Positions 1 through 44,143 of a stretch of DNA of 64,000 nt are shown one piece after another. Source of the stretch: Escherichia phage vB_Eco4M-7. How positions within the stretch are numbered: position 1 is the first letter of the stretch; every line of letters starts with the position of its first letter. The position numbers and the translations under genes were made by a program. The stretch lies in sequence record MN176217. One strand, given 5' to 3'. Under the pieces are notes generated by a model that saw only the letters and a list, made by a program, of their open reading frames with translations, had not been told where the DNA came from and did no database searches.

Positions 1-34
1 GACGCTGATCAGACTTTAATTCAATGGGTAAGGT

Positions 35-460
35 TTGATAACACTGGCGGCGGCAAATATCGCTACTATGGCGACGAGCGATTCACCACTAAATTCTATA
101 AGGTACTCGACCATGGCTCATGTTAAAGACGAAGTGTTGTATGGCGCAGAAATTAAGAAGCGCGTGCGTGAGATGGCTTCCGGTGGCACGCTGCTGCCGC
201 CGCGCGTTCGATGCGACCATGTGATTGGCGTATCCGGCACGAAGGAGATGGGCGTGTTGGTAAAAGACATTCGCATTGGCGATGTCATGGTCATCGACCG
301 ACAAGCGCGCGTCGTTATCCAGGTACAGCCGAACGATGATGAAGGTTGTGTCCTATTGAAGCTGAAGAAGCTTTCATCAAGCCCAGCGAAGGCCGTCATC
401 AAGAAGGTTTGGCCCGAAGGATTACGCAAACTCATCCGTCGACCCGTGGAGAATGTTTAA
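35..460 (+). CDS. hypothetical early protein
   Basis: ORF track, 141 aa; first gene of a long plus-strand run of small coupled ORFs; no recognisable motif. Confidence 0.45.
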   Translation: MITLAAANIATMATSDSPLNSIRYSTMAHVKDEVLYGAEIKKRVREMASGGTLLPPRVRCDHVIGVSGTKEMGVLVKDIRIGDVMVIDRQARVVIQVQPNDDEGCVLLKLKKLSSSPAKAVIKKVWPEGLRKLIRRPVENV

Positions 461-696
461 TGGAAGATTATATTAACGCCATGTATATGGCATTCTATGT
501 CGTGCAACTTCCCAATGGCGCGGTATTCTATGGCGAGTATACCTTTGACGTTCAATATGACGTTTCAGAGCGTACAGTGTTAACAAGGGAGTTGATTGCG
601 GACCTTAAGGACGACATAAAACGCGTCGCGCGGCAGCAGTTCAATTTGGATGACACAGTCATCGTTCGAATTACCGGAATAACAGAGGTGCAGTGA
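460..696 (+). CDS. hypothetical early protein
   Basis: Internal ATG at 460 (MEDYINAMY...) overlaps upstream stop (TAATGG); ORF track frame 346..696. Confidence 0.45.
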   Translation: MEDYINAMYMAFYVVQLPNGAVFYGEYTFDVQYDVSERTVLTRELIADLKDDIKRVARQQFNLDDTVIVRITGITEVQ

Positions 697-1025
697 TGAC
701 CCGTGATCAGATACTCGCCGCGCACAGACGCGGATCAGTAAAAGACATCTGGAAAAGACACAACTCATTTGCCGAAGCCTATTACTTCTTAAAGAAGTGC
801 ATAAAAGAGAATGTGAGGATGGGCGATACCGTTTTGACATTCAACCTTTTGTCTTATGGCAATAAGCTTAATGCAATATATGCTTGTCGCCTTGCAAGCA
901 TGAGGTTTGATGCAGGCAGCGACGGAGAGTTAACCATCTATCGATTCTCTCACCGGACGGGTGATACAAAGATAACAAGGACAAGGCACGAGATAGAGAT
1001 TGACCTACTCCACTATGTAAAATGA
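693..1025 (+). CDS. hypothetical early protein
   Basis: ORF track 110 aa; start overlaps upstream stop (ATGA). Confidence 0.5.
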   Translation: MMTRDQILAAHRRGSVKDIWKRHNSFAEAYYFLKKCIKENVRMGDTVLTFNLLSYGNKLNAIYACRLASMRFDAGSDGELTIYRFSHRTGDTKITRTRHEIEIDLLHYVK

Positions 1026-1030
1026 ATATC

Positions 1031-1063
1031 AAAAAGGTGAGCTAAATGCTTGCCTTTTCTTTT
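1031..1063 (+). terminator. rho-independent terminator-like hairpin (copy 1 of repeated cassette)
   Basis: AAGGTGAGC / GCTTGCCTT stem with G-U wobbles (1034-1056) followed by T-rich run; same 25-mer repeated at 2285. Confidence 0.5.
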
Positions 1064-1078
1064 ATCAATACTTATACT
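1050..1078 (+). promoter_or_regulatory. sigma70-like promoter TTGCCT-N17-TATACT
   Basis: -35 TTGCCT 1050-1055 (inside 3' arm of the hairpin), -10 TATACT 1073-1078, upstream of ORF 1111. Confidence 0.45.
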
Positions 1079-1110
1079 CTTTTCATCAAGACGAACAAGT
1101 GAGGTGAATT

Positions 1111-1428
1111 ATGATTTACTTAGGCATCGACAAGGAACAAGACGAGCGGTTAGGAAGCGTGTTAAACGTAGACTTGAACACAGCTGTACACATTAAGCCT
1201 TGGCCAGAGGCGCACCCCGACGTAGTTGTACCCGTTGCGCCTTGGACGCGTTACGTGGCCATTGACGATGACGGTCTTGTTCATTGTTATTCAGAAAAAC
1301 CGACATACTTCGAAAAGTATCGCCAATGGCTCATGACTGGATGGGCAAAGGTGCGCTGTTGCGGCGAAGTCGGTCTGGAAGGCTGGAGCTTCGAGGCTAG
1401 TGAATCGTTTGTCGAGGTGCAATTATGA
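1111..1428 (+). CDS. hypothetical early protein
   Basis: ORF track 105 aa; RBS GTGAGGTG upstream. Confidence 0.55.
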   Translation: MIYLGIDKEQDERLGSVLNVDLNTAVHIKPWPEAHPDVVVPVAPWTRYVAIDDDGLVHCYSEKPTYFEKYRQWLMTGWAKVRCCGEVGLEGWSFEASESFVEVQL

Positions 1429-1643
1429 ATGCCGCGCTGGGTAAGTTGTCATTCAACAAGCGTAACGAGCTGCGCATGGTGTCGCGCTTCCAGTTTGTAT
1501 TGAACTCGATGTCGAATCTTGCCATCACGATGCTTCGCGCTGATTGCCCTGCTGAAAAGCGTGAGACTTTATTTGAACGTCACAACCAATTACGAAAGGC
1601 TGCTTATAAGCTGCAGCAATATGCTATGGAGTATGCAAAATGA
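1425..1643 (+). CDS. hypothetical early protein
   Basis: ORF track 72 aa; ATGA overlap with upstream gene. Confidence 0.5.
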   Translation: MNAALGKLSFNKRNELRMVSRFQFVLNSMSNLAITMLRADCPAEKRETLFERHNQLRKAAYKLQQYAMEYAK

Positions 1644-2023
1644 GAATGAAGCGTTGCCCTTACTGCCACGATGTAATGCACCTTCCACACAAAGAGTTTG
1701 TGCAGCACATGACTAACTGTGATAAGAATCCTAAGAGCGAAAGCCAACTTGAAGAAAGAATGTTCTTGGTGTCATTCAAAGCTTCTGCTTATGAAGTGCA
1801 ACGTTCTTACGGCGCACCAAGTACGATTTACTGCCCAACAACATTGAGAAGTGACATTGACTCAATTCAGCTTGCGGCCTGGATTAACGTTAAGGAAGGA
1901 ATCACGCCGCACTTTATTGCACGCATCCAATCTCAGATTCTACAAATCAAGCGCGAATACAACCGTGACATCACTGAAGTGAAGGTGTTGTCTATCACAC
2001 CGATGAATAAGGAGTTGCCGTGA
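1640..2023 (+). CDS. hypothetical protein with N-terminal CxxC...H...C zinc-ribbon-like motif
   Basis: ORF track 127 aa; MRMKRCPYCHDVMHLPHKEFVQHMTNCD. Confidence 0.5.
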   Translation: MRMKRCPYCHDVMHLPHKEFVQHMTNCDKNPKSESQLEERMFLVSFKASAYEVQRSYGAPSTIYCPTTLRSDIDSIQLAAWINVKEGITPHFIARIQSQILQIKREYNRDITEVKVLSITPMNKELP

Positions 2024-2280
2024 ACAAGGGTCCGATGACTAAGTTAGCCGTTGCCGCGCGGAAGCTTCGACAAGCCGTTAATGGGTCGCGGCCCGTGGTG
2101 TTAACACTCGACGACGCAAAGGCACTGGTAGAGCTACTCGACGAGCACAACCGACGCAAGAATCTGGAGAACACATTACGCTGGCGCGTTACTCCGAAAG
2201 GGCGGGAGAGCGAAAAGAAAGCTTACTTGCGGCGTAAACTAAGGTCGGTCGGCCTTCACGAAGAGGCGAAGAATATTTAA
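2020..2280 (+). CDS. hypothetical basic protein
   Basis: GTG start 6 nt after AGGAG; overlaps upstream stop; 86 aa. Confidence 0.45.
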   Translation: MNKGPMTKLAVAARKLRQAVNGSRPVVLTLDDAKALVELLDEHNRRKNLENTLRWRVTPKGRESEKKAYLRRKLRSVGLHEEAKNI

Positions 2281-2286
2281 TTCAAA

Positions 2287-2316
2287 AAGGTGAGCTAAAT
2301 GCTTGCCTTTTTATTT
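2287..2316 (+). terminator. rho-independent terminator-like hairpin (copy 2)
   Basis: Exact repeat of the 1031-1058 hairpin, followed by T run. Confidence 0.5.
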
Positions 2317-2330
2317 GCCTGTATTATACT
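2303..2330 (+). promoter_or_regulatory. sigma70-like promoter TTGCCT-N16-TATACT
   Basis: -35 TTGCCT 2303-2308, -10 TATACT 2325-2330; RBS AAGGAG at 2344. Confidence 0.45.
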
Positions 2331-2352
2331 TAGTTCATCAAGCAAAGGAGAA

Positions 2353-2661
2353 ATGAGTATGAGTTACGACGAAAGGTTTGGCAGAAGCGGATTATTTCAT
2401 GACGCTGTACACAAAGACAGCAAAGATGTTGTCTGCGCATTCAAGGTTGATTCTTACGGTACACTGAAACCTTTTAAGGTCGGCGAAACATACAAGCTGT
2501 TTCACGGCTGGTTGACGCGTCGCAACAACTTGCCTGACATGGAAGTCTGGTGGATAGAATACAAGGGTCAGGCTCATCGTTGCAAGGTTGTAGAGGTGCG
2601 CGGCGTGGAATACTATCAATCTGTTATCAGCGGCTTTGTTTTTAAAGAGGGTGAGCTATGA
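2353..2661 (+). CDS. hypothetical protein (FKVG-x-TY paralog family)
   Basis: ORF track frame 2299..2661 trimmed to ATG after AAGGAG; shares FKVGETYKLF motif with ORF 3646..3987. Confidence 0.5.
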   Translation: MSMSYDERFGRSGLFHDAVHKDSKDVVCAFKVDSYGTLKPFKVGETYKLFHGWLTRRNNLPDMEVWWIEYKGQAHRCKVVEVRGVEYYQSVISGFVFKEGEL

Positions 2662-2978
2662 GTACCGAAGCGATGAAGAAAAAGATTTTGAACGCTTTGC
2701 AAGAAGCCGTGAACTGTGGTGCAATTAAAGAGTTCAAGGAGACGCAAGAAGGCGGTGAGCCAGTATTCTTCTTTAAGAATAAAAAGGACGGTGTTGCAGC
2801 AATCATGCTATTAAAGAATAGCGATGACACATTTGTTCTTTGCGTCGGCGGGTATGACCTTGTTGCAGACGATATATTCATAACCTGTGCTGGCAGCCTT
2901 GACACTGTTCTGACTTTTTCGCGTCGCGACATCCGTGTTGCAACGTTCGGAGGGAAATATTATGACATCCAACCTTAA
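2658..2978 (+). CDS. hypothetical protein
   Basis: ORF track 106 aa; ATGA overlap. Confidence 0.5.
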   Translation: MSTEAMKKKILNALQEAVNCGAIKEFKETQEGGEPVFFFKNKKDGVAAIMLLKNSDDTFVLCVGGYDLVADDIFITCAGSLDTVLTFSRRDIRVATFGGKYYDIQP

Positions 2979-3126
2979 AGCCCGTTTGTTATTCATCAAG
3001 CTGCATGTGCCATATAAGATTAGTAAGCGCACCTGGCTTAACATTTACAACCGCGGCGGCGACCGTTGTTTGTACAAGGCAAAGCGGCGCAAGAAGGTAT
3101 ATTCTTACACAACATCAATCAAATAA
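2962..3126 (+). CDS. small basic hypothetical protein
   Basis: ATG at 2962 after GGAGGG; in frame with ORF track 2935..3126. Confidence 0.3.
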   Translation: MTSNLKARLLFIKLHVPYKISKRTWLNIYNRGGDRCLYKAKRRKKVYSYTTSIK

Positions 3127-3142
3127 ATAGGATAAGACAACA

Positions 3143-3646
3143 ATGAAAATCGAACAACTCGAAGCAGTATTGGAAATGGCTGTGAAGGCAGGCGCAATCA
3201 GAAGCTATAGCCGCGAGAAGTCGGATGACGCTGCGCACTTTTGTCGCAACTTCTATATTGTCGGCAACCTTAACGACCACTACACCATCGAGTGGTATAC
3301 TAATATGATGACGCTTAAGTCGCGCACCATGGAGCTTTGGTGCGATGACATCTGCTTATCCAACACCCATCCATCCTACGACGTTGCGTTGGCATTCTAT
3401 TACGGAAGCCGTCAACCTGTCGCCCACATCGGTGAGAAGCATGAGCATCTTAAGGCGCGACCAGAGGAATCAATGGAAGGTTGGATTGAATGGGCTGGCG
3501 GCAAGAATCCGGTGCCTGGTAAGAAGGTCATGTTGATGTGGAGGAATGAAGAGAAGTCTTCTTATTCATCCAATTCAGAAGGATGGCTATGGCAGCACAA
3601 CGGAAGCGTTTATGACATCATTGCTTATCGCGTCGTGGAGGAATAA
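3143..3646 (+). CDS. hypothetical protein (shares C-terminal NPVPG...AYRVV domain with 4790..5221)
   Basis: ORF track 167 aa; C-terminus GGKNPVPGKKVMLMWRN...YDIIAYRVVEE. Confidence 0.55.
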   Translation: MKIEQLEAVLEMAVKAGAIRSYSREKSDDAAHFCRNFYIVGNLNDHYTIEWYTNMMTLKSRTMELWCDDICLSNTHPSYDVALAFYYGSRQPVAHIGEKHEHLKARPEESMEGWIEWAGGKNPVPGKKVMLMWRNEEKSSYSSNSEGWLWQHNGSVYDIIAYRVVEE

Positions 3647-3987
3647 TGGAAGAGCAAGAAGGCCGTGAGCTCACGTTCGACGAGCAGATGCAAGAGCTTC
3701 AGCGCACATCGCCGCTGCGCGGTAAGGTTGTTGACATCGAGGCGAGCGAATCCAATCTCACCCAGTGGCGACTCAAGTGCACCAGCACAAGCAAGGATAT
3801 GTTAAGCTTCAAAGTCGGTCAAACCTATTTGCTTTATGAGGCAAAAGGACTTATTATTGATGGAAGGCAAATTGTCTTCACAGTAGTCAGCGGAATGCGT
3901 TGGTTCGTGAAGCGTGATGTCGAGGGCCGTGACATGTTTGTCGCAGGCTTTCCAGAAGCAAGATTCCAATTGGAGAAGGTTAAATGA
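3646..3987 (+). CDS. hypothetical protein (FKVG-x-TY paralog family)
   Basis: ORF track 113 aa; SFKVGQTYLLYEAKG. Confidence 0.5.
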   Translation: MEEQEGRELTFDEQMQELQRTSPLRGKVVDIEASESNLTQWRLKCTSTSKDMLSFKVGQTYLLYEAKGLIIDGRQIVFTVVSGMRWFVKRDVEGRDMFVAGFPEARFQLEKVK

Positions 3988-4316
3988 AATTGAAATGGTA
4001 TGTGGACCCTGAGCCGACAGGCTCATACAGGTCATTCCAACGTCGCGGCTGGCCGATTTGTTACAGCGGCAATCCCGATAAAGAAGACTGCGAGATGATC
4101 GCCGCGATAGTAAGTCTTAACCATGACGGCTATGAAGGCCACTATGCGAGAGCAACCAACCTTCGGCTCAAGGTGCGCATCCATTTCAAGGTCGCAGGCG
4201 AGGACCGCACCGGACTCTCTAAGGAAGAGTTCAGCAGCATTGCCGAAGCAAAGGCATGGCTCAAGGCATTCTATAAGAACAACCCTAAATTCTATCCAAC
4301 TAAGGACGCATCATGA
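3984..4316 (+). CDS. hypothetical protein
   Basis: ORF track 110 aa; ATGA overlap. Confidence 0.5.
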   Translation: MKLKWYVDPEPTGSYRSFQRRGWPICYSGNPDKEDCEMIAAIVSLNHDGYEGHYARATNLRLKVRIHFKVAGEDRTGLSKEEFSSIAEAKAWLKAFYKNNPKFYPTKDAS

Positions 4317-4501
4317 CTAATAAAACACAGCTCATCAATTTTGAAGGCAAAGAATACGAAATAGACGCTCGTGCGCGATTCGTTGCGCGCGATTCTAACG
4401 GAACCATCTGGGCGTATGAGGGTAAACCTGCATGGAACGATTGGCGCGGCCAGTGGGGGATATGCAATTGGCGATTCACTTTGGTGCAAGCAAATTGGTG
4501 A
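4313..4501 (+). CDS. hypothetical protein
   Basis: ORF track 62 aa; Trp-rich. Confidence 0.4.
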   Translation: MTNKTQLINFEGKEYEIDARARFVARDSNGTIWAYEGKPAWNDWRGQWGICNWRFTLVQANW

Positions 4502-4508
4502 TGGAAAG

Positions 4509-4805
4509 ATGTTCGAAGAGAACAGACCAGCATCACGTGATTCATTAAAGGAAGTGGCAGAAATCAAAATCCAAGACCAAGCGCCATCGACCGATAACCA
4601 ATATGCAGTCGGGCAACGTGACATCGAGCAACTCGACGAGGGCGGCTATTATACGCGCCACATCTATGCCATGACGCATGAAGGACTTTACAGCAAGTCA
4701 GACATCGCCGCTGAACTGGCCCATCGTGACTTGCAAATTGACCTTCTCAAGATAGAAGTGCAAAACTTACGCAACACCCTTTTGAATACTTGGAGCTTAA
4801 AATGA
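4509..4805 (+). CDS. hypothetical protein
   Basis: ATG at 4509 just after upstream stop at 4501, in frame with ORF track 4371..4805. Confidence 0.45.
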   Translation: MFEENRPASRDSLKEVAEIKIQDQAPSTDNQYAVGQRDIEQLDEGGYYTRHIYAMTHEGLYSKSDIAAELAHRDLQIDLLKIEVQNLRNTLLNTWSLK

Positions 4806-5221
4806 CGCAACGTTATGATGTTGATTATTGCACGCAGCACGCTTGCACCTGCGAAGTTGTAAAGGATGATGAAGGCGGCTACGTTGAATATGAGGACTAC
4901 GCCGCGCTGGAAGCGAAATACAGTGAAGCGCAACGCGAGTTGGTTGCATTACGCTCACAGGTCCGTGATGCGTCGGTGCTCGTTAAGCAGTTGCATGACG
5001 TTGTTGCTACTATAGGCGTGGATGATGCGCCGAAGGAGGAAGCGTGGACCGTTTGGGAATCCAACGCAACCAATCCCGTCCCAGGACGTATGGTGATGTA
5101 TATGTTGCGCGACGGCTATGAATCTAAATCACCTGTGCTTTCCGATGGGTTGCGTTGGGAGATGATGGGACTGCCACACGGAACGGACATCGTCGCTTAT
5201 CGGGTTGTTAAGGAGGGGTGA
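4790..5221 (+). CDS. hypothetical protein (paralogous C-terminal domain to 3143..3646)
   Basis: ORF track 143 aa; alternative ATG at 4802; C-terminus NPVPGRMVMYMLRD...DIVAYRVVKEG. Confidence 0.55.
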   Translation: MELKMTQRYDVDYCTQHACTCEVVKDDEGGYVEYEDYAALEAKYSEAQRELVALRSQVRDASVLVKQLHDVVATIGVDDAPKEEAWTVWESNATNPVPGRMVMYMLRDGYESKSPVLSDGLRWEMMGLPHGTDIVAYRVVKEG

Positions 5222-5754
5222 TGGGTAACGATGCAGGATGGGGCAAGCCGCGATACTCAAAACTTGCCCACTACTTTGACGACGGCGAGCAAATCAGCTT
5301 GTGCGGTAAATTCAGCAAAGGCAATACAGAGTTGACCGACGCTCAAGAAATGGAATCAAGTTTAACAATTGGTGATTGTTCTAAATGTCGCAAGGCATTA
5401 TATGAGTTATTAACTCTAAGGGGATTGGAAGCGGCAAAATCAAGGGATGAATGGGTCATTAACGTCTGTGAAGGGAATCCAGAATTAATGGATGAATGGC
5501 TAAAGACGGATGCTGTTAATGCCATTTTCAAAAGGCATTATAAAACTTGTATGCGTTACAAGATGAATGATGATATTATTTTTATGGTATTATCTTATTC
5601 AAGGAGCACAATGGACGTCAAAAAGCTTCGACAATATCGCCACAAGGTAATGTGTGAATTACGCCGTTTAGGAGTGATTGTGGATAATAATGTTATTAAA
5701 ACGGAGTTAAAGAAGCGTGATAAAAGGAATGGTGACTGGAAGGTCAGCGGATAA
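5218..5754 (+). CDS. hypothetical Cys-containing protein; last gene of early operon
   Basis: ORF track 178 aa; 3' third is AT-rich with an internal AAGGAG-ATG at 5612. Confidence 0.4.
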   Translation: MMGNDAGWGKPRYSKLAHYFDDGEQISLCGKFSKGNTELTDAQEMESSLTIGDCSKCRKALYELLTLRGLEAAKSRDEWVINVCEGNPELMDEWLKTDAVNAIFKRHYKTCMRYKMNDDIIFMVLSYSRSTMDVKKLRQYRHKVMCELRRLGVIVDNNVIKTELKKRDKRNGDWKVSG

Positions 5755-6180
5755 AGAACATTGATTCGTGTGTTTTGAAGAATGGAATGTGTACAATTGG
5801 TCGCTTTACGCGGCCTTTTTGTCGTTTGGGTCGTGTTTTGTGATAGAATAATTATGACGAGGTGTTTTATTTATTAATTGTGCGGAAATATTTAGAAATA
5901 TATACAAACAGGATTGTTAATATTTTAATAGTGTATGGCTATTGGTCCGTGGTGTTTGTTAGATTCTATCTATGGATTGGATTTTCTTGGGTCGTGGAAC
6001 GTGGTTTTGAACACATTTGATACGCCTAAAATACGGTTAAAAATTAAGCGTATCATGGCTGCAGGCCGCGCCGTTCCTGGATTCCTATTTTCAAAAGTGG
6101 TACACCCTTACGTCATGATACGTCATGGTTTTCTATCCGTAAGAGTGTACAGCCCTTGCCGCGCCTGGCTTGTACATTAA

Positions 6181-6326
6181 TCTTACGGATGATACGGATA
6201 AAACTGAGCATCGTTATATATAGAATTCGAAAAATTAATTAACTCCATTTTAAAAACATTTATATTAATTTTTTTCATATCCTCATACTTATGTTAATTT
6301 ATATATTTAACGTATCATCCGTAAGA
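6181..6326. repeat. inverted-repeat element A: TCTTACGGATGATACG arms flanking ~110 bp AT-rich core
   Basis: 6181-6199 TCTTACGGATGATACGGAT; 6311-6326 is its reverse complement; extra ATACG boxes at 6018, 6112, 6355-6378. Confidence 0.8.
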
Positions 6327-6606
6327 TATAAGTAAAAACAAAGACTTGCGGCAATACGGATGATACGTCATGATACGCTTCAACCAGCCAGCAGCGGCTA
6401 AGTCATTGATTTGCATAACAAGCGGCGAAAGGGATGGATTTCTTTTATACGTATCAAACAGTACACCACGCACCACGGTCCGCAATCCTATTTGCACTAT
6501 GATTTGTGTACGTTTATAGCCATAATGAACATCAATCTGCACTTGAATATAATGTCCATCCATTGTATAATTCACACTATTAATTTGCACTATGGGATTT
6601 TGCACT

Positions 6607-7080
6607 ATGAGTCAAGATTATGTAGCGATGCCTGAAGACTTTGAAGACCCGCGATTCGCAGAGCACAATCAGGCTTTATTCGATGAGTTCATTGACCTTG
6701 TTATTCAGGGCCATGACATGCGCGCAGCTTTTGCACTAGTATTTGGAATGGAAGTTGCAACGGATAACTACACTGGCCAGCGAATCCTTTGCACGCAACG
6801 CAATCCATACTACAAGATGCGCTTCAAAAAGCGTATGGAAGAGATGCCACTCAAGGATTTGTGGAGCGTAAAAGGTGCAATTCACAATTTGGTCAAGCTT
6901 GTGCGTGATCCAGAAGTCGCAGCGTCAGCCAAGCTTAATGCTATTCGTGAACTGAATATCATCTACGACATCACGATGATTGATGAAAACGGCAACAGCA
7001 AGATGGGCCGTTCCATGGACGATTTCTACAAGGATTTTGGAGAGGCGGCCAAAGAAGGCGAGCAATTCTCCCGCCACTAG
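6607..7080 (+). CDS. putative HTH DNA-binding protein, possibly terminase small subunit-like
   Basis: ATG at 6607 overlaps the third TTTGCACTAT motif; N-terminal FDEFIDLVIQGHDMRAAFALVFG resembles small-terminase HTH (recalled pattern, not searched). Confidence 0.35.
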   Translation: MSQDYVAMPEDFEDPRFAEHNQALFDEFIDLVIQGHDMRAAFALVFGMEVATDNYTGQRILCTQRNPYYKMRFKKRMEEMPLKDLWSVKGAIHNLVKLVRDPEVAASAKLNAIRELNIIYDITMIDENGNSKMGRSMDDFYKDFGEAAKEGEQFSRH

Positions 7081-7099
7081 CCAATTTGCACTATAAAAC

Positions 7100-7133
7100 G
7101 GCCCTAGAACACATTGTCTCCAATTCTAGGGCC
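7100..7133. other. 10-bp perfect stem-loop GGCCCTAGAA/TTCTAGGGCC
   Basis: Inverted repeat just after the stop of 6607..7080; no obvious U-tract. Confidence 0.5.
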
Positions 7134-7508
7134 ATCGGTAATACGACGGGGAAGGTTGCAACCGTAAACGCGTTAGAAAGTGTATTATTATAAGTCATCT
7201 TTTAGTCACCTTACGTAACAATTTACGACCTTCAACCGTCCAATCGAACGACTCCACCAGCAGATTCGCACTATAACCTAAGACCACTCGACCCTTCTCG
7301 TTATCGACCCGCCAGCAAGTCTCGAATAGCATTCGATTTGCACTATTAACTATTGCTGCGACTCGCGTAGGATAAGCGCAATTTGCACTATGGTCGTAAA
7401 GGGATAAGGTGCGACCACTTCCGATGGACAACGTAGCGATGAGAATGAGCGTATTCATAAGCCACCAATTTGCACTATGAAAAGCGACCCCGAAGGGCCG
7501 CCATTCGA

Positions 7509-8135
7509 TTAGATAATCTGGAAGGTGTAGGACTTGTTGCCGAACTCGAAGTTCAAGCGTCCAGCTTCTTTAAGCTTCATGCGGAAGCGAATATGCTTGC
7601 TATCCGGCAAGCCCAGCGCGGCGAACGCTACGCGGACCGATTTGAACTCGCCTACACCCTCGACCATAACGCCGTTACGGGTGAGACGCTTTTGCGCCAC
7701 TTCTTTATTATCCCAACTTTTTGCAATACCTTTGCTATTCGAACGGCGATGGGAAGGAATTGCAATTTTATTCGCTCCAACCGGAGCATCATTAAGGCCG
7801 CTTTTAACGAAGGCTTCATATTCTTCGTCGGTCATCGCGTCGAGTTCTTCCTGGGTCGGCTCGGCCTTTTTAACGACCGCGCGCGCCTTATGCGTTTTTA
7901 CATCACTGGACACTTCCTCGCGAGACTTTGCGTCTGGGATGGGCGATTCGTTGGACGGATCATCGAGCGCGTTTAAGGATTCGATTAACGCGATTACGCG
8001 AGTCTCAGCGGTGCGACGGTCCGCGAATTTTTTAATCGGCTTTGAGCCTGAATTTTCGTTATAGAATGCAACGAGGTCGGCGGTCTTGGTTGCGATTACG
8101 TCGCCGCTGGTGGAGAAACGATTCAAACTGGCCAT
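7509..8135 (-). CDS. hypothetical protein
   Basis: ORF track 208 aa; strong RBS AGGAG 8 nt upstream of ATG; protein-like composition unlike the overlapping plus-strand ORF. Confidence 0.6.
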   Translation of the reverse strand: MASLNRFSTSGDVIATKTADLVAFYNENSGSKPIKKFADRRTAETRVIALIESLNALDDPSNESPIPDAKSREEVSSDVKTHKARAVVKKAEPTQEELDAMTDEEYEAFVKSGLNDAPVGANKIAIPSHRRSNSKGIAKSWDNKEVAQKRLTRNGVMVEGVGEFKSVRVAFAALGLPDSKHIRFRMKLKEAGRLNFEFGNKSYTFQII

Positions 8136-8180
8136 AATAAACTCCTAGTTTGGGAGCGGTGTCAACGACCTATTCGTTAA

Positions 8181-8243
8181 CTCATCCGTCCCGATATGAG
8201 TACATTATAATATAGTGTAGAAAAAAAGTAAAGCACTTTTTCG
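8181..8243 (-). promoter_or_regulatory. promoter-like element (minus-strand copy)
   Basis: Reverse complement reads CGAAAAAGTGCTTTAC...TACACT...TATAAT, near-identical to the 8664 element. Confidence 0.5.
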
Positions 8244-8275
8244 ATAAAAATGAGATAAATTATTTTATCTTTTTT

Positions 8276-8318
8276 CTTTACTTCTTCGTACACTCGCGTA
8301 TACTTGTTTATATCGAGA
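8276..8318 (+). promoter_or_regulatory. promoter-like element (copy 2)
   Basis: CTTTACTTCTTCGTACACT (exact 19-mer shared with 8674) + TATACT 8299-8304 + GTTTATATCGAGA. Confidence 0.5.
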
Positions 8319-8360
8319 CGGGCGATGGCCCTTCCTTCTAATAGCATCGGGAGTTTTATT

Positions 8361-8663
8361 ATGACCACTTTAATCTCTTCTATCCTTACTTACGACGAAG
8401 ACCGTTTAACCGTTCGCTCTCTTATCGCCGCCGTTAACGCGGAACTAGAATCCACCATTATTAAGGTCCGCGCGGTCGCTTTCGTCGGCCTTTCCTTCGA
8501 CGATATTAAGTACGCCGAACGTAGCGTCATCCGCTTCGCGAAGACCGATGACGAAGCCGTTACCCTTATCGAGACGGTTACGCCGCGCGGCGAAGCGTTA
8601 ATTATCGTCGAGTATATCGACGTAGAAGGCGATAAGGCTTATAAATATTTTATCGCAAAATAA
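8361..8663 (+). CDS. hypothetical protein
   Basis: ORF track frame 8304..8663, start moved to ATG 8361 after GGGAG; CpG-rich codon choice. Confidence 0.5.
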   Translation: MTTLISSILTYDEDRLTVRSLIAAVNAELESTIIKVRAVAFVGLSFDDIKYAERSVIRFAKTDDEAVTLIETVTPRGEALIIVEYIDVEGDKAYKYFIAK

Positions 8664-8717
8664 CGAAAAAGTGCTTTACTTCTTCGTACACTAAGACTAT
8701 AATGTTTTATATCGAGA
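8664..8717 (+). promoter_or_regulatory. promoter-like element (copy 3)
   Basis: CGAAAAAGTGCTTTACTTCTTCGTACACT, TATAAT 8698-8703, GTTTTATATCGAGA. Confidence 0.5.
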
Positions 8718-8770
8718 GGGGATGAGGTAGCGAATAGGTCGCTACCCTCCCGACTAACTAGGAGAATATT

Positions 8771-9061
8771 ATGATTACTTTAGCCGCTATCCGCGACGCT
8801 CGCGTCGAGACTTCCGAAAATTCCAACGTATTTGGCGAAAAGCTTAAAAACGTCTATCTTTTTAACGTAGACGCAACTATCGAGCCTATTTATGAGCCGA
8901 TCAACTTCCTCGACCTTTACAAGTATCGCGACGAGGACATCGTATCATCCCGCGTAACGATCAACGGCTTCGTCTATACGATTACCGAAATCGGCGGCGA
9001 ATATCTCGCGGTCCCGCAACTCGGCGGCGAAGTAACTTTCTTTAAAATCGTAAGCCTGTAA
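8771..9061 (+). CDS. hypothetical protein
   Basis: ORF track 96 aa; RBS AGGAGAA upstream. Confidence 0.55.
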   Translation: MITLAAIRDARVETSENSNVFGEKLKNVYLFNVDATIEPIYEPINFLDLYKYRDEDIVSSRVTINGFVYTITEIGGEYLAVPQLGGEVTFFKIVSL

Positions 9062-29881: not shown

Positions 29882-30349
29882 ATGATTAACGTTTCCGGTT
29901 TTGGCGCTTCGATTCGTTTGGTAGCATCAAACACTTTTCCGAATGGTGTGACTCTTTCTGATTTTGCAGATGATGCTGATCCGATTGACGCGCCGGACCT
30001 GCAAATCTCTGAGGCCGCAATGGGCCTTAACGGTGACTTAGTAGTATGGAACCGTGCAAACCCGCTTGAAGTTGGCGTGAACATCATCCCTACTTCTGAA
30101 AGTGATGTCAACTTGGACGTTCTTGCAGCTGCAAACCGCGTAGGCAAGCGTAAGAACTCCGCAAAAGACGTGATCACACTTGTGCTGACTTATCCTTCTG
30201 GAATGGTTATCACGCTAAACAAAGGCACCTTGACAACTGGTTCAGTAATTCCTGGCATCCAGTCTCAAGGTCGTGTGAAAACACGCCAATATCGCTTCAA
30301 GTTTGAGAACGTAGTCAAAACTGGCGTGAGCAACCAAGAGATTTTATAA
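29882..30349 (+). CDS. putative tail tube protein
   Basis: 155 aa after sheath; paralogous to 31300..31797. Confidence 0.5.
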   Translation: MINVSGFGASIRLVASNTFPNGVTLSDFADDADPIDAPDLQISEAAMGLNGDLVVWNRANPLEVGVNIIPTSESDVNLDVLAAANRVGKRKNSAKDVITLVLTYPSGMVITLNKGTLTTGSVIPGIQSQGRVKTRQYRFKFENVVKTGVSNQEIL

Positions 30350-31299: not shown

Positions 31300-31797
31300 A
31301 TGGTCAATATTAGTGGATTTGGCACAAGCATTAGAATTGTCGCTCTTCAATCTTTTCCTGTTGGGCTGAATATCAGTTCTTTGTCTGATGACCAGGATTC
31401 GCTAATTATTGAGGAAGTTGAATCAGTAGGTTATCAACTTACTTACGACGGCGGCATTTGCATATACGACAAAGCCGCCGTCGTTCGCGTATCCATTGCG
31501 GTCATTCCAAACACTGAAGATGACATAAATCTTAAGCTTTTATTATCTGCCCGTAAAGGTGGATTCAAGTGGTTGCCAATTCAGGATGTGACATCAATGC
31601 TTATTACATATCCTGACGGTGGAAGGGTGGCATTCTCTAACGGAACAATAATCAGCGGTCCGCTTGGTGACTCCATAGAGCAATCAGGCCGTCGCAAGAC
31701 AAACCGATACACATTTGTGTTTGCCAGCTACGGCGGCGCGCAGAGCACGTCTCAAATTGCCAAGGGCGTGGTGCAGAGCATATTGGGGTCCATTTAA
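31300..31797 (+). CDS. tail tube-like paralog
   Basis: MVNISGFGTSIRIVALQSFP... aligns with 29882 product along its length (SGFG.SIR.VA, ITYP.G, QSGR.KT.Y.F). Confidence 0.5.
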   Translation: MVNISGFGTSIRIVALQSFPVGLNISSLSDDQDSLIIEEVESVGYQLTYDGGICIYDKAAVVRVSIAVIPNTEDDINLKLLLSARKGGFKWLPIQDVTSMLITYPDGGRVAFSNGTIISGPLGDSIEQSGRRKTNRYTFVFASYGGAQSTSQIAKGVVQSILGSI

Positions 31798-43498: not shown

Positions 43499-44143
43499 AT
43501 GATTAATGCAAACGTAATATCTAAAGGGACCGGATGCAGCATGGATGTCGCAGAGGAGTGGGTGGACCCTTTCAAGCAGGCTTGTGAGCACTACGGAATC
43601 AAAAGCAAGAATGCCATCGCGGCGCTGCTTGCAAACGTAGGAGTGGAAACAGGCAGTCTGAAGACCTTTGTGGAAAACTTGAACTACTCCGCTCAAGGTC
43701 TTGCGAATACATGGCCTAGCCGTTACAGCGCCAGCGGTCGTTTCGGCGGCGCACCAAACTCCTTGGCACTGTCGATTGCCCGTAAACCAATGGAAATCGC
43801 CAATAATACATATGCAAACCGAATGGGCAATGGTTCGGTAGCATCTGGCGACGGTTGGAAGTACCGTGGCCGTGGTGCCATTCAGCTGACTGGAAAGGCC
43901 AACTATGCAGAGTATTCAAAGCAATCAGGGTATGACGCATTGAATAACCCTGACATTTTGACTGAGCCGAAATACATCGCTGACAGCGCGGCATGGTTTT
44001 TCAAGAACAGCGGTTGCATTCCACTTGCTGATGCTGGCGCATTTGATTCGACTGTGAAGCGGATTAACGGGGCCGCGCCAAATACGGCTAACCATGGGGA
44101 TTTGCGACGGAAGCGTTACAAGGATGCACTAGCAGTTGTGTAA
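43499..44143 (+). CDS. endolysin, glycoside hydrolase family 19-like
   Basis: 214 aa; WKYRGRGAIQLTGKANY and SAAWFF motifs. Confidence 0.65.
   Translation: MINANVISKGTGCSMDVAEEWVDPFKQACEHYGIKSKNAIAALLANVGVETGSLKTFVENLNYSAQGLANTWPSRYSASGRFGGAPNSLALSIARKPMEIANNTYANRMGNGSVASGDGWKYRGRGAIQLTGKANYAEYSKQSGYDALNNPDILTEPKYIADSAAWFFKNSGCIPLADAGAFDSTVKRINGAAPNTANHGDLRRKRYKDALAVV

Follow-up and report, generated by a model that had tools for sequence, protein, structure and literature searches.

Lambda Ea22 and the Ead/Ea22-like proteins are small mosaic proteins of the phage non-structural region, in which a conserved coiled coil is combined with interchangeable C-terminal domains (PMC10834534). One such domain of unknown function, DUF551, follows either a coiled coil or a domain of the dATP/dGTP diphosphohydrolase type (PMC10834534). 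Here we describe a comparable arrangement in Escherichia phage vB_Eco4M-7 (sequence record MN176217), of which a stretch of 64,000 nucleotides (nt), referred to as the window, was analysed. Two of the small proteins encoded between positions 2,353 and 5,221, designated B1 and B2, share a C-terminal domain, the B domain, which sequence comparisons indicate to be a portable module of phage proteins. Bases 2000-6000 of the window are 99.7% identical to Escherichia phage vB_Eco4M-7n of the genus Wifcevirus, and the GenBank record of this phage labels all genes of the region 2,353-5,221 as 'hypothetical protein'.

Like the B domain, DUF551 (PF04448; present in E. coli CPS-53 YfdS and in Ea22 variant 2 of Stx phages) is a small (~60-70 amino acids, aa), Trp-rich and portable C-terminal domain of phage and prophage proteins. 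The signatures differ, however, being ..LP..VL....W....THW.PLP in DUF551 and WIxW.GG..PV....W.H...DIxAYRVV in the B domain. Judged by size, position and partners, DUF551 is the obvious analogue of the B domain, but the two are not detectably related. The Ead/Ea22-like proteins and the Wifcevirus proteins encoded at the B2 position are likewise both mosaic, the latter keeping the C-terminal domain while the N-terminal parts vary. In lambda Ea22 the C-terminal domain forms a dimer of mixed alpha-beta structure (PMC10834534); for the B domain, by contrast, a mostly beta structure is predicted. A further small domain with comparable features is the WW domain, likewise a short beta module, marked by a Pro and two signature Trp. 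The only match obtained when a sequence profile of the B domain was compared with the PDB was a weak one to the Salvador WW domain (E = 0.049); no solved structural relative was retrieved.

B1 and B2 share a C-terminal domain

A first-pass annotation of this region had proposed two paralog families among its small genes, one recognized by the motif FKVG(E/Q)TY(K/L)L(F/Y) in two proteins designated A1 and A2, the other by a C-terminal domain of ~45 aa with the motif W..W..NPVPG...V.AYRVV.E in B1 and B2. Both motifs are literally present where they had been placed, and the pairwise alignments that had been suggested as a check support the second family and leave the first at chance level (see below). 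The features of the B pair are as follows.

3143..3646, + strand: B1, a two-module protein of 167 aa; residues 1-104 match phrog_21861 (6e-54), the C-terminal part is the B domain
3476..3643, + strand: B domain copy 1, WIEW-GG-NPVPG ... W.W ... DIIAYRVVEE; 79 bits with a local hidden Markov model (HMM)
4802..5221, + strand: B2, 139 aa (143 aa if started at TTG 4790); its short N-terminal part is followed by a probable coiled coil and, at the C-terminus, by the B domain
5039..5218, + strand: B domain copy 2, WTVW-..-NPVPG ... RW ... DIVAYRVVKEG; 65 bits with the local HMM

The C-termini of B1 and B2 are identical at 25 of 59 residues (42%), corresponding to E = 3e-11 in pairwise BLASTP and to E = 1e-8 against all open reading frames (ORFs) of the window, and their Smith-Waterman score of 107 compares with a maximum of 61 among shuffled sequences. 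The HMM, built from 117 domain instances, matches both copies with the scores listed above and identified no third copy in the window. Both proteins match phrog_16943 and phrog_11995 (E 5e-6 to 8e-5), and the matches of B1 to phrogs 9174, 26870, 16943 and 11995 are confined to residues ~102-166. These four PHROG families of unknown function have profiles that cover the B domain; they differ from it in being automatic whole-protein clusters with different partners and no annotation, and the domain is not delineated as a unit in Pfam or NCBIfam. The start of B2 in GenBank, in the record of the 99.7% identical phage, is ATG 4802 and not TTG 4790, from which the gene had initially been drawn.

The N-terminal parts of the two proteins are unrelated. 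B1 starts with a globular module of ~104 residues, while B2 carries a short head followed by the probable coiled coil, its N-terminus matching phrog_23083 (E = 9.8e-9). Residues 8-51 of B2 show a weak match to the Lar-like (restriction alleviation) phrog_3592 (E = 0.0031) and no match to the Pfam counterpart, and residues 33-75 give weak matches to the coiled-coil-type Pfam families DivIC and TPR (E ~0.15). Since the N-terminal parts are unrelated, the similarity reflects domain sharing and not gene duplication. Thus, the sequences identify pair B as real homology, in the form of a portable domain carried on two different N-terminal modules. The earlier proposal of duplicated small genes stands with regard to the relationship itself but not with regard to its nature, and the shared unit is longer than had been estimated, comprising ~58 residues. 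A relationship between the product of 2658..2978 and the N-terminus of B1 was also considered and rejected as insignificant (E = 8.3).

The B domain is widespread among phage proteins

The ~58 residues of the B domain are beta-rich and follow the signature W-I-x-W-x-G-G-x-x-P-V ... V ... R-x-G ... [LF]-x-W-x-H ... D-I-[IV]-A-Y-R-V-V, in which W10, W13, G15, G16, P19, W46, D54, I55, Y58 and R59 are nearly invariant. An AlphaFold2 model based on the 117 domain instances predicts a small, mostly beta structure with confidence (mean predicted local distance difference test score, pLDDT, of 89). No match to Pfam or NCBIfam was obtained for the domain even at E <= 10. The Pfam family Tudor_Coilin, which was hit by two relatives, was rejected as an identification, the hit being a 16-residue local match on the DIVAYRV strand.

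A word-indexed search for homologs retrieved only five proteins; an exhaustive HMM search reached far more. With a profile of seven sequences against 1.84 billion proteins, 4011 clusters (at 50% identity) were matched at E <= 1e-3 and 260 at E <= 1e-10. Among the 152 best proteins, one copy of the domain is present in 47, two copies in 83, three in 16 and four or more in 6. The last copy ends at most 10 residues from the C-terminus in 97 of these 152, as it does in B1 and B2, and 26 consist of essentially nothing but the domain. The B domain occurs as a stand-alone protein of 56-70 aa (P0149 and P0104, of 56-62 aa, are examples), as a tandem array of two to five copies, or joined to other modules, among them modules resembling nucleotide pyrophosphohydrolases. 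Recurrent fusion partners are dGTP_diPhyd_N, the N-domain of dATP/dGTP diphosphohydrolase (6 cases), DUF3310/SaV-like (5) and DUF6378 (4), and the structural neighbours of the B domain in BFVD carry the same fusions.

A tblastn search with the consensus of the domain returned 260 phage records of many genera, nearly all annotated as 'hypothetical', which span phages of Salmonella, Escherichia, Klebsiella, Pseudomonas, Burkholderia and Rhizobium. Among phages of Proteobacteria the domain is very frequent, and there are some relatives of actinobacterial appearance. In a scan of bacterial genomes, at least six loci were confirmed, which belong to Cupriavidus, Sphingomonas, Rhizobiales and several metagenome bins. 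With respect to gene neighbourhood, a B-domain gene directly follows a DNA polymerase gene in BcepNY3 and another lies between DNA polymerase I and exonuclease plus primase in Burkholderia phage HN03; in Wifcevirus, the B-domain genes belong to a block after the primase gene.

Mosaic variation of the B domain within Wifcevirus

Comparison within the genus covered 12 Wifcevirus genomes. All 12 keep a protein at the B1 position and one at the B2 position. The B1 ortholog of Mansfield (L016 4672-5010) stops before the B domain, and in a B2-like database protein (P0020) the same coiled coil is followed by two B domains in tandem; these two cases are direct evidence that gain and loss affect the domain as a whole. 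At the B2 position the C-terminal domain is kept, while the N-terminal parts range from 98% identity down to 29% or no match.

The domain itself is unevenly conserved. Its flanks are on average 72-91% identical within Wifcevirus and its centre 42-51%, and the central ~25 residues, with variable positions 31-53, fall into at least five types across the 12 genomes. The window and Mansfield have at their B2 position a type of centre that occurs at the B1 position in CWP003, EC150 and Bas101. Correspondingly, at the nucleotide level the B1 flanks of EC150 and CWP003 are 90-97% identical to those of B1 in the window, whereas their centres are 69-71% identical to the centre of B2 in the window and only 47-49% to that of B1. 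By this pattern, the B domain evolves in a mosaic, cassette-like fashion on a conserved frame, and centres are exchanged between the B1 and B2 positions.

Putative role of the B domain

The explanation that we favour, and that we regard on the whole as probable with some reserve, is that only one of the two proposed families is real, that its B domain acts as a portable binding or targeting module, and that the resemblance of the A pair arose by chance. The positions with invariant Trp, Gly, Pro, Tyr and Arg would then make up a scaffold that stays fixed, and the variable centre would serve as the surface for binding and set specificity. By this means the B domain might bring the part to which it is fused to a partner in the infected cell, with the fused part supplying an activity or oligomerisation; the coiled coil of B2 would present the domain as an oligomer. 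Because of the fusion partners and gene neighbourhoods described above, this cellular partner probably belongs to DNA or nucleotide metabolism, or else is a host factor that differs from strain to strain.

Several points weigh against this explanation. The binding mechanism is one that we infer from sequence, and the centre of the domain could vary through absent constraint rather than through selection. The fusion partners are themselves poorly characterised, and the gene neighbourhoods are mixed, some copies being located among lysis genes or transcription regulators. The list of best proteins was ranked by their summed score, by which multi-copy proteins are over-represented. Finally, the structural test of the A pair described below had low power, as the model of A1 is of moderate confidence and the BFVD search missed the orthologs of A1.

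As the main rival, it might be hypothesized that the B domain, instead of targeting a protein, serves phage proteins of DNA or nucleotide metabolism as an accessory domain for the binding of nucleotides or nucleic acid, which would make B1 and B2 small DNA- or nucleotide-binding factors of the replication module. Such a role would fit the repeated occurrence of fusions with the dATP/dGTP diphosphohydrolase N-domain, DUF3310 and DUF6378 and the position of B-domain genes next to those for DNA polymerase, exonuclease or primase. In addition, the invariant aromatic residues together with Arg and Asp (W10, W13, W46, Y58, R59, D54) could stack on bases, and tandem arrays would suit a polymeric ligand. 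One fusion is annotated as polynucleotide kinase, but this label lacks Pfam support. However, the domain resembles none of the known folds that bind nucleic acids or nucleotides, and a hypervariable centre that is exchanged between loci would be unexpected in a generic binder of DNA or nucleotides. We therefore consider this role possible but unlikely.

Rather more doubtful is the proposal that the B domain is a new fold family acting as an intracellular variable-loop binding scaffold, in which a rigid Trp/Gly/Pro core would carry a hypervariable centre of ~25 residues, exchanged like a cassette between phages as well as between paralogous loci, that retargets fused effectors or inhibitors to fast-evolving proteins of the host or its defence. 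If true, such a scaffold would be the intracellular counterpart of the diversification of receptor-binding proteins. A role in host takeover or anti-defence, as had been suggested for the small genes, receives circumstantial support only from the hypervariable, cassette-swapped centre in a genus otherwise ~90% identical. With the exception of the weak match of the B2 N-terminus to the Lar-like PHROG, no protein of the gene block matches an annotated anti-defence, defence or host-takeover family, and comparison of eight block proteins with the PADLOC profiles gave no match at E <= 0.1; the NCBIfam scan was likewise without a hit.

A1 and A2 share a short motif at chance level

The two proteins of the A pair are encoded at the following positions.

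2359..2661, + strand: A1, an orphan protein of 100 aa, predicted all-beta; FKVGETYKLF at nt 2473-2502
3646..3987, + strand: A2, an orphan protein of 113 aa; FKVGQTYLLY at nt 3808-3837; its start overlaps the stop of B1 by one base

For A1, ATG 2359, which is used by GenBank, fits the AAGGAG at 2345-2350 (8 nt before) better than the start at 2353 that had been assigned to it; a start at 2299, given in one GenBank record, is unlikely because a hairpin-promoter cassette (see below) is located directly upstream of A1.

BLASTP aligned A1 and A2 over 12 residues (19.6 bits), with E = 0.005 when treated as a single comparison. When all 479 ORFs of the window were searched, E was ~2.5, and spurious (antisense) ORFs, several in number, scored equal or better. 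The Smith-Waterman score of 40 ranks tied fourth among the 120 pairs of an all-against-all comparison of 16 block proteins, with a per-pair shuffle p of 0.008. When these 16 proteins are fully shuffled, 69% of the sets include a pair that reaches 40 or more. Alignment of the profiles of the A1 and A2 orthologs with hhalign gave a probability of 16% over 15 columns. Homologs of A1 were retrieved from Wifcevirus-like contigs only (at least 67% identity) and those of A2 in three clusters only, all at least 91% identical; in viral contigs, A2 had only three near-identical loci. A2 has no match in Pfam, PHROG or NCBIfam. A1 is missing in 3 of the 12 Wifcevirus genomes (FEC19, Ro157lw and EC150), while A2 is present in all 12 at 92-100% identity. 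The AlphaFold2 model of A1 is all-beta at moderate confidence (pLDDT 73), and in a Foldseek search with this model against BFVD the best E did not fall below 0.3. Orthologs of A2 were absent from the result, but so were those of A1 itself, which left the search powerless. From these sequence comparisons we conclude that A1 and A2 are unrelated orphans restricted to the genus, which share a motif of ~10 residues by chance.

It might still be speculated that A1 and A2 are old duplicates that have diverged beyond recognition save for a constrained FKVG(E/Q)TY.L(F/Y) strand, in which case both families would be true paralogs. The two proteins are similar in size, the motif leads into a beta strand in the model of A1, and A2 is the best phmmer match of A1 in the window, although only at E = 0.99. 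The motif is also invariant or nearly so within each ortholog set, but these sets are too close, at the identities given above, for this invariance to carry meaning. Moreover, the similarity is absent beyond 12-15 columns, its score is readily reached by shuffled sets and by spurious antisense ORFs, A1 is dispensable while A2 is universal, and no Wifcevirus protein of 113 aa was returned by the BFVD search. This makes an ancient duplication very improbable.

Relation of the B domain to DUF551 and Ea22

Also very improbable is that the B domain is a very divergent DUF551 or Ea22-type portable C-terminal domain, with B2 as an Ead/Ea22-like protein: although Ea22 variants and YfdS have the same architecture of a short N-terminus, a coiled coil and a small swappable C-terminal domain (PMC10834534), dATP/dGTP diphosphohydrolase is a fusion partner common to DUF551 (PMC10834534) and the B domain, and both are Trp-rich domains of ~60 residues, Pfam DUF551 matched its positive control YfdS (E = 2.7e-4, 22.2 bits at a cutoff of 22) and gave no match at E <= 10 for B1, B2 and four other B-domain proteins and none at 1e-3 among 148 representatives of the family, while B2 had no match to Pfam Ead_Ea22 at E <= 1, only the DivIC/TPR coiled-coil noise mentioned above. 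Comparison of the profile of 117 B-domain sequences with YfdS by hhalign yielded a probability of 0.2%, a weak test in that DUF551 was represented by a single sequence; the phage sequences matching YfdS in tblastn were almost all at least 95% identical to it, too close to provide a diverse DUF551 profile. On the Pfam and hhalign results, a relationship of the B domain to DUF551 was rejected.

Genomic setting and additional features

About 25 further Wifcevirus genomes are 87-96% identical to bases 2000-6000 of the window, with the similarity split over several separate pieces. According to the ORF list, a rightward block of small, mostly overlapping genes extends over ~35..5754, and the region studied here is the distal part of this tightly packed block; in relatives, it is preceded by the DNA primase gene on the same strand. 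Two elements border or divide it.

2282..2330, + strand: hairpin followed by a sigma-70-like promoter (cassette), directly upstream of A1; a near-identical copy is located at 1029-1078
5799..5815, + strand: terminator-like hairpin plus T-run at the end of the rightward gene block

The two cassettes contain an exact 26-nt hairpin repeat, AAAGGTGAGCTAAATGCTTGCCTTTT, at 1033-1058 and 2286-2311, followed in both by TTGCCT-N16/17-TATACT, and look like internal units, each a terminator or attenuator joined to a promoter, by which the block of small genes is divided.

A third pair of similar proteins within the block was missed by the first-pass annotation.

1111..1428, + strand: first member of the phrog_1972 pair (phrog_1972, E = 2.7e-21)
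4313..4501, + strand: second member of the phrog_1972 pair (phrog_1972, E = 5.6e-10), the N-terminal fragment of a split gene

Their products share an 'A.D..G....Y..KP' core (pairwise BLASTP E = 5e-6), and the Smith-Waterman score of 60 exceeds 48.5, the 95th percentile of the best pair in shuffled sets, and is thus significant family-wise; the alignment indicates a real paralog pair. Direct reading of the sequence revealed a run of five G at 4455-4459 where EC150 and Bas101 have four, and the additional G shifts the frame and splits one gene into 4313-4501 and 4509-4805. The unsplit counterpart is a single ORF of ~163 aa in EC150, Bas101, Bas100 and Mansfield. The run could represent a pseudogenising mutation, a homopolymer sequencing error or a slippery site. 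A stretch of 45 residues in the product of 4509-4805 is 42% identical (E = 7e-4 against the ORFs of the window) to the N-terminal part of the product of 43499-44143, an endolysin-like protein (phrog_181).

For the last gene of the block, 5221-5754 (phrog_2358), Wifcevirus has two strongly divergent alleles, which are either 91-99% or only 34-41% identical to the copy in the window. The ~840 bp that follow the block (5755-6591), up to the next rightward gene, are devoid of a convincing gene; two strong promoter-like sites are located within this gene-poor stretch, at 6526-6571, and an Rfam scan over positions 1-9000 of the window, which includes it, gave no match. The motif CCAATTTGCACTAT is present in four copies around the divergent region 6480-7480 (sites spanning 6487-7482), and an exact 19-nt repeat, CTTTACTTCTTCGTACACT, occurs twice, at 8276-8294 and 8674-8692, each followed by a TATACT/TATAAT box. 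Both repeats are candidate phage promoters or operators. Outside this region, the proteins encoded by 29882-30349 and 31300-31797 (~155-165 aa) are paralogous, with 33% identity over 141 aa (E = 1e-25), and each matches phrog_2420 ('tail fiber protein'). For vB_Eco4M-7, a system with which a synthetic genome can be assembled is available (PMC11074155). The literature consulted on Wifcevirus and vB_Eco4M-7 contained nothing on the genes studied here or on the timing of their expression.

Conclusions

Taken by itself, pair B is ordinary domain sharing among small accessory phage proteins. What makes the B domain worth recording is that a module of ~58 residues, sharply defined by its signature and often repeated in tandem, is shared by thousands of phage protein clusters and yet has no entry in Pfam or NCBIfam. 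With its definition as a domain, hundreds of phage genomes could be annotated better, among them Jerseyvirus, Kagunavirus, Webervirus-like, rV5-like and Wifcevirus therapeutic candidates. In addition, the pattern of conserved flanks and swapped centres provides a concrete handle on what these accessory proteins recognise.

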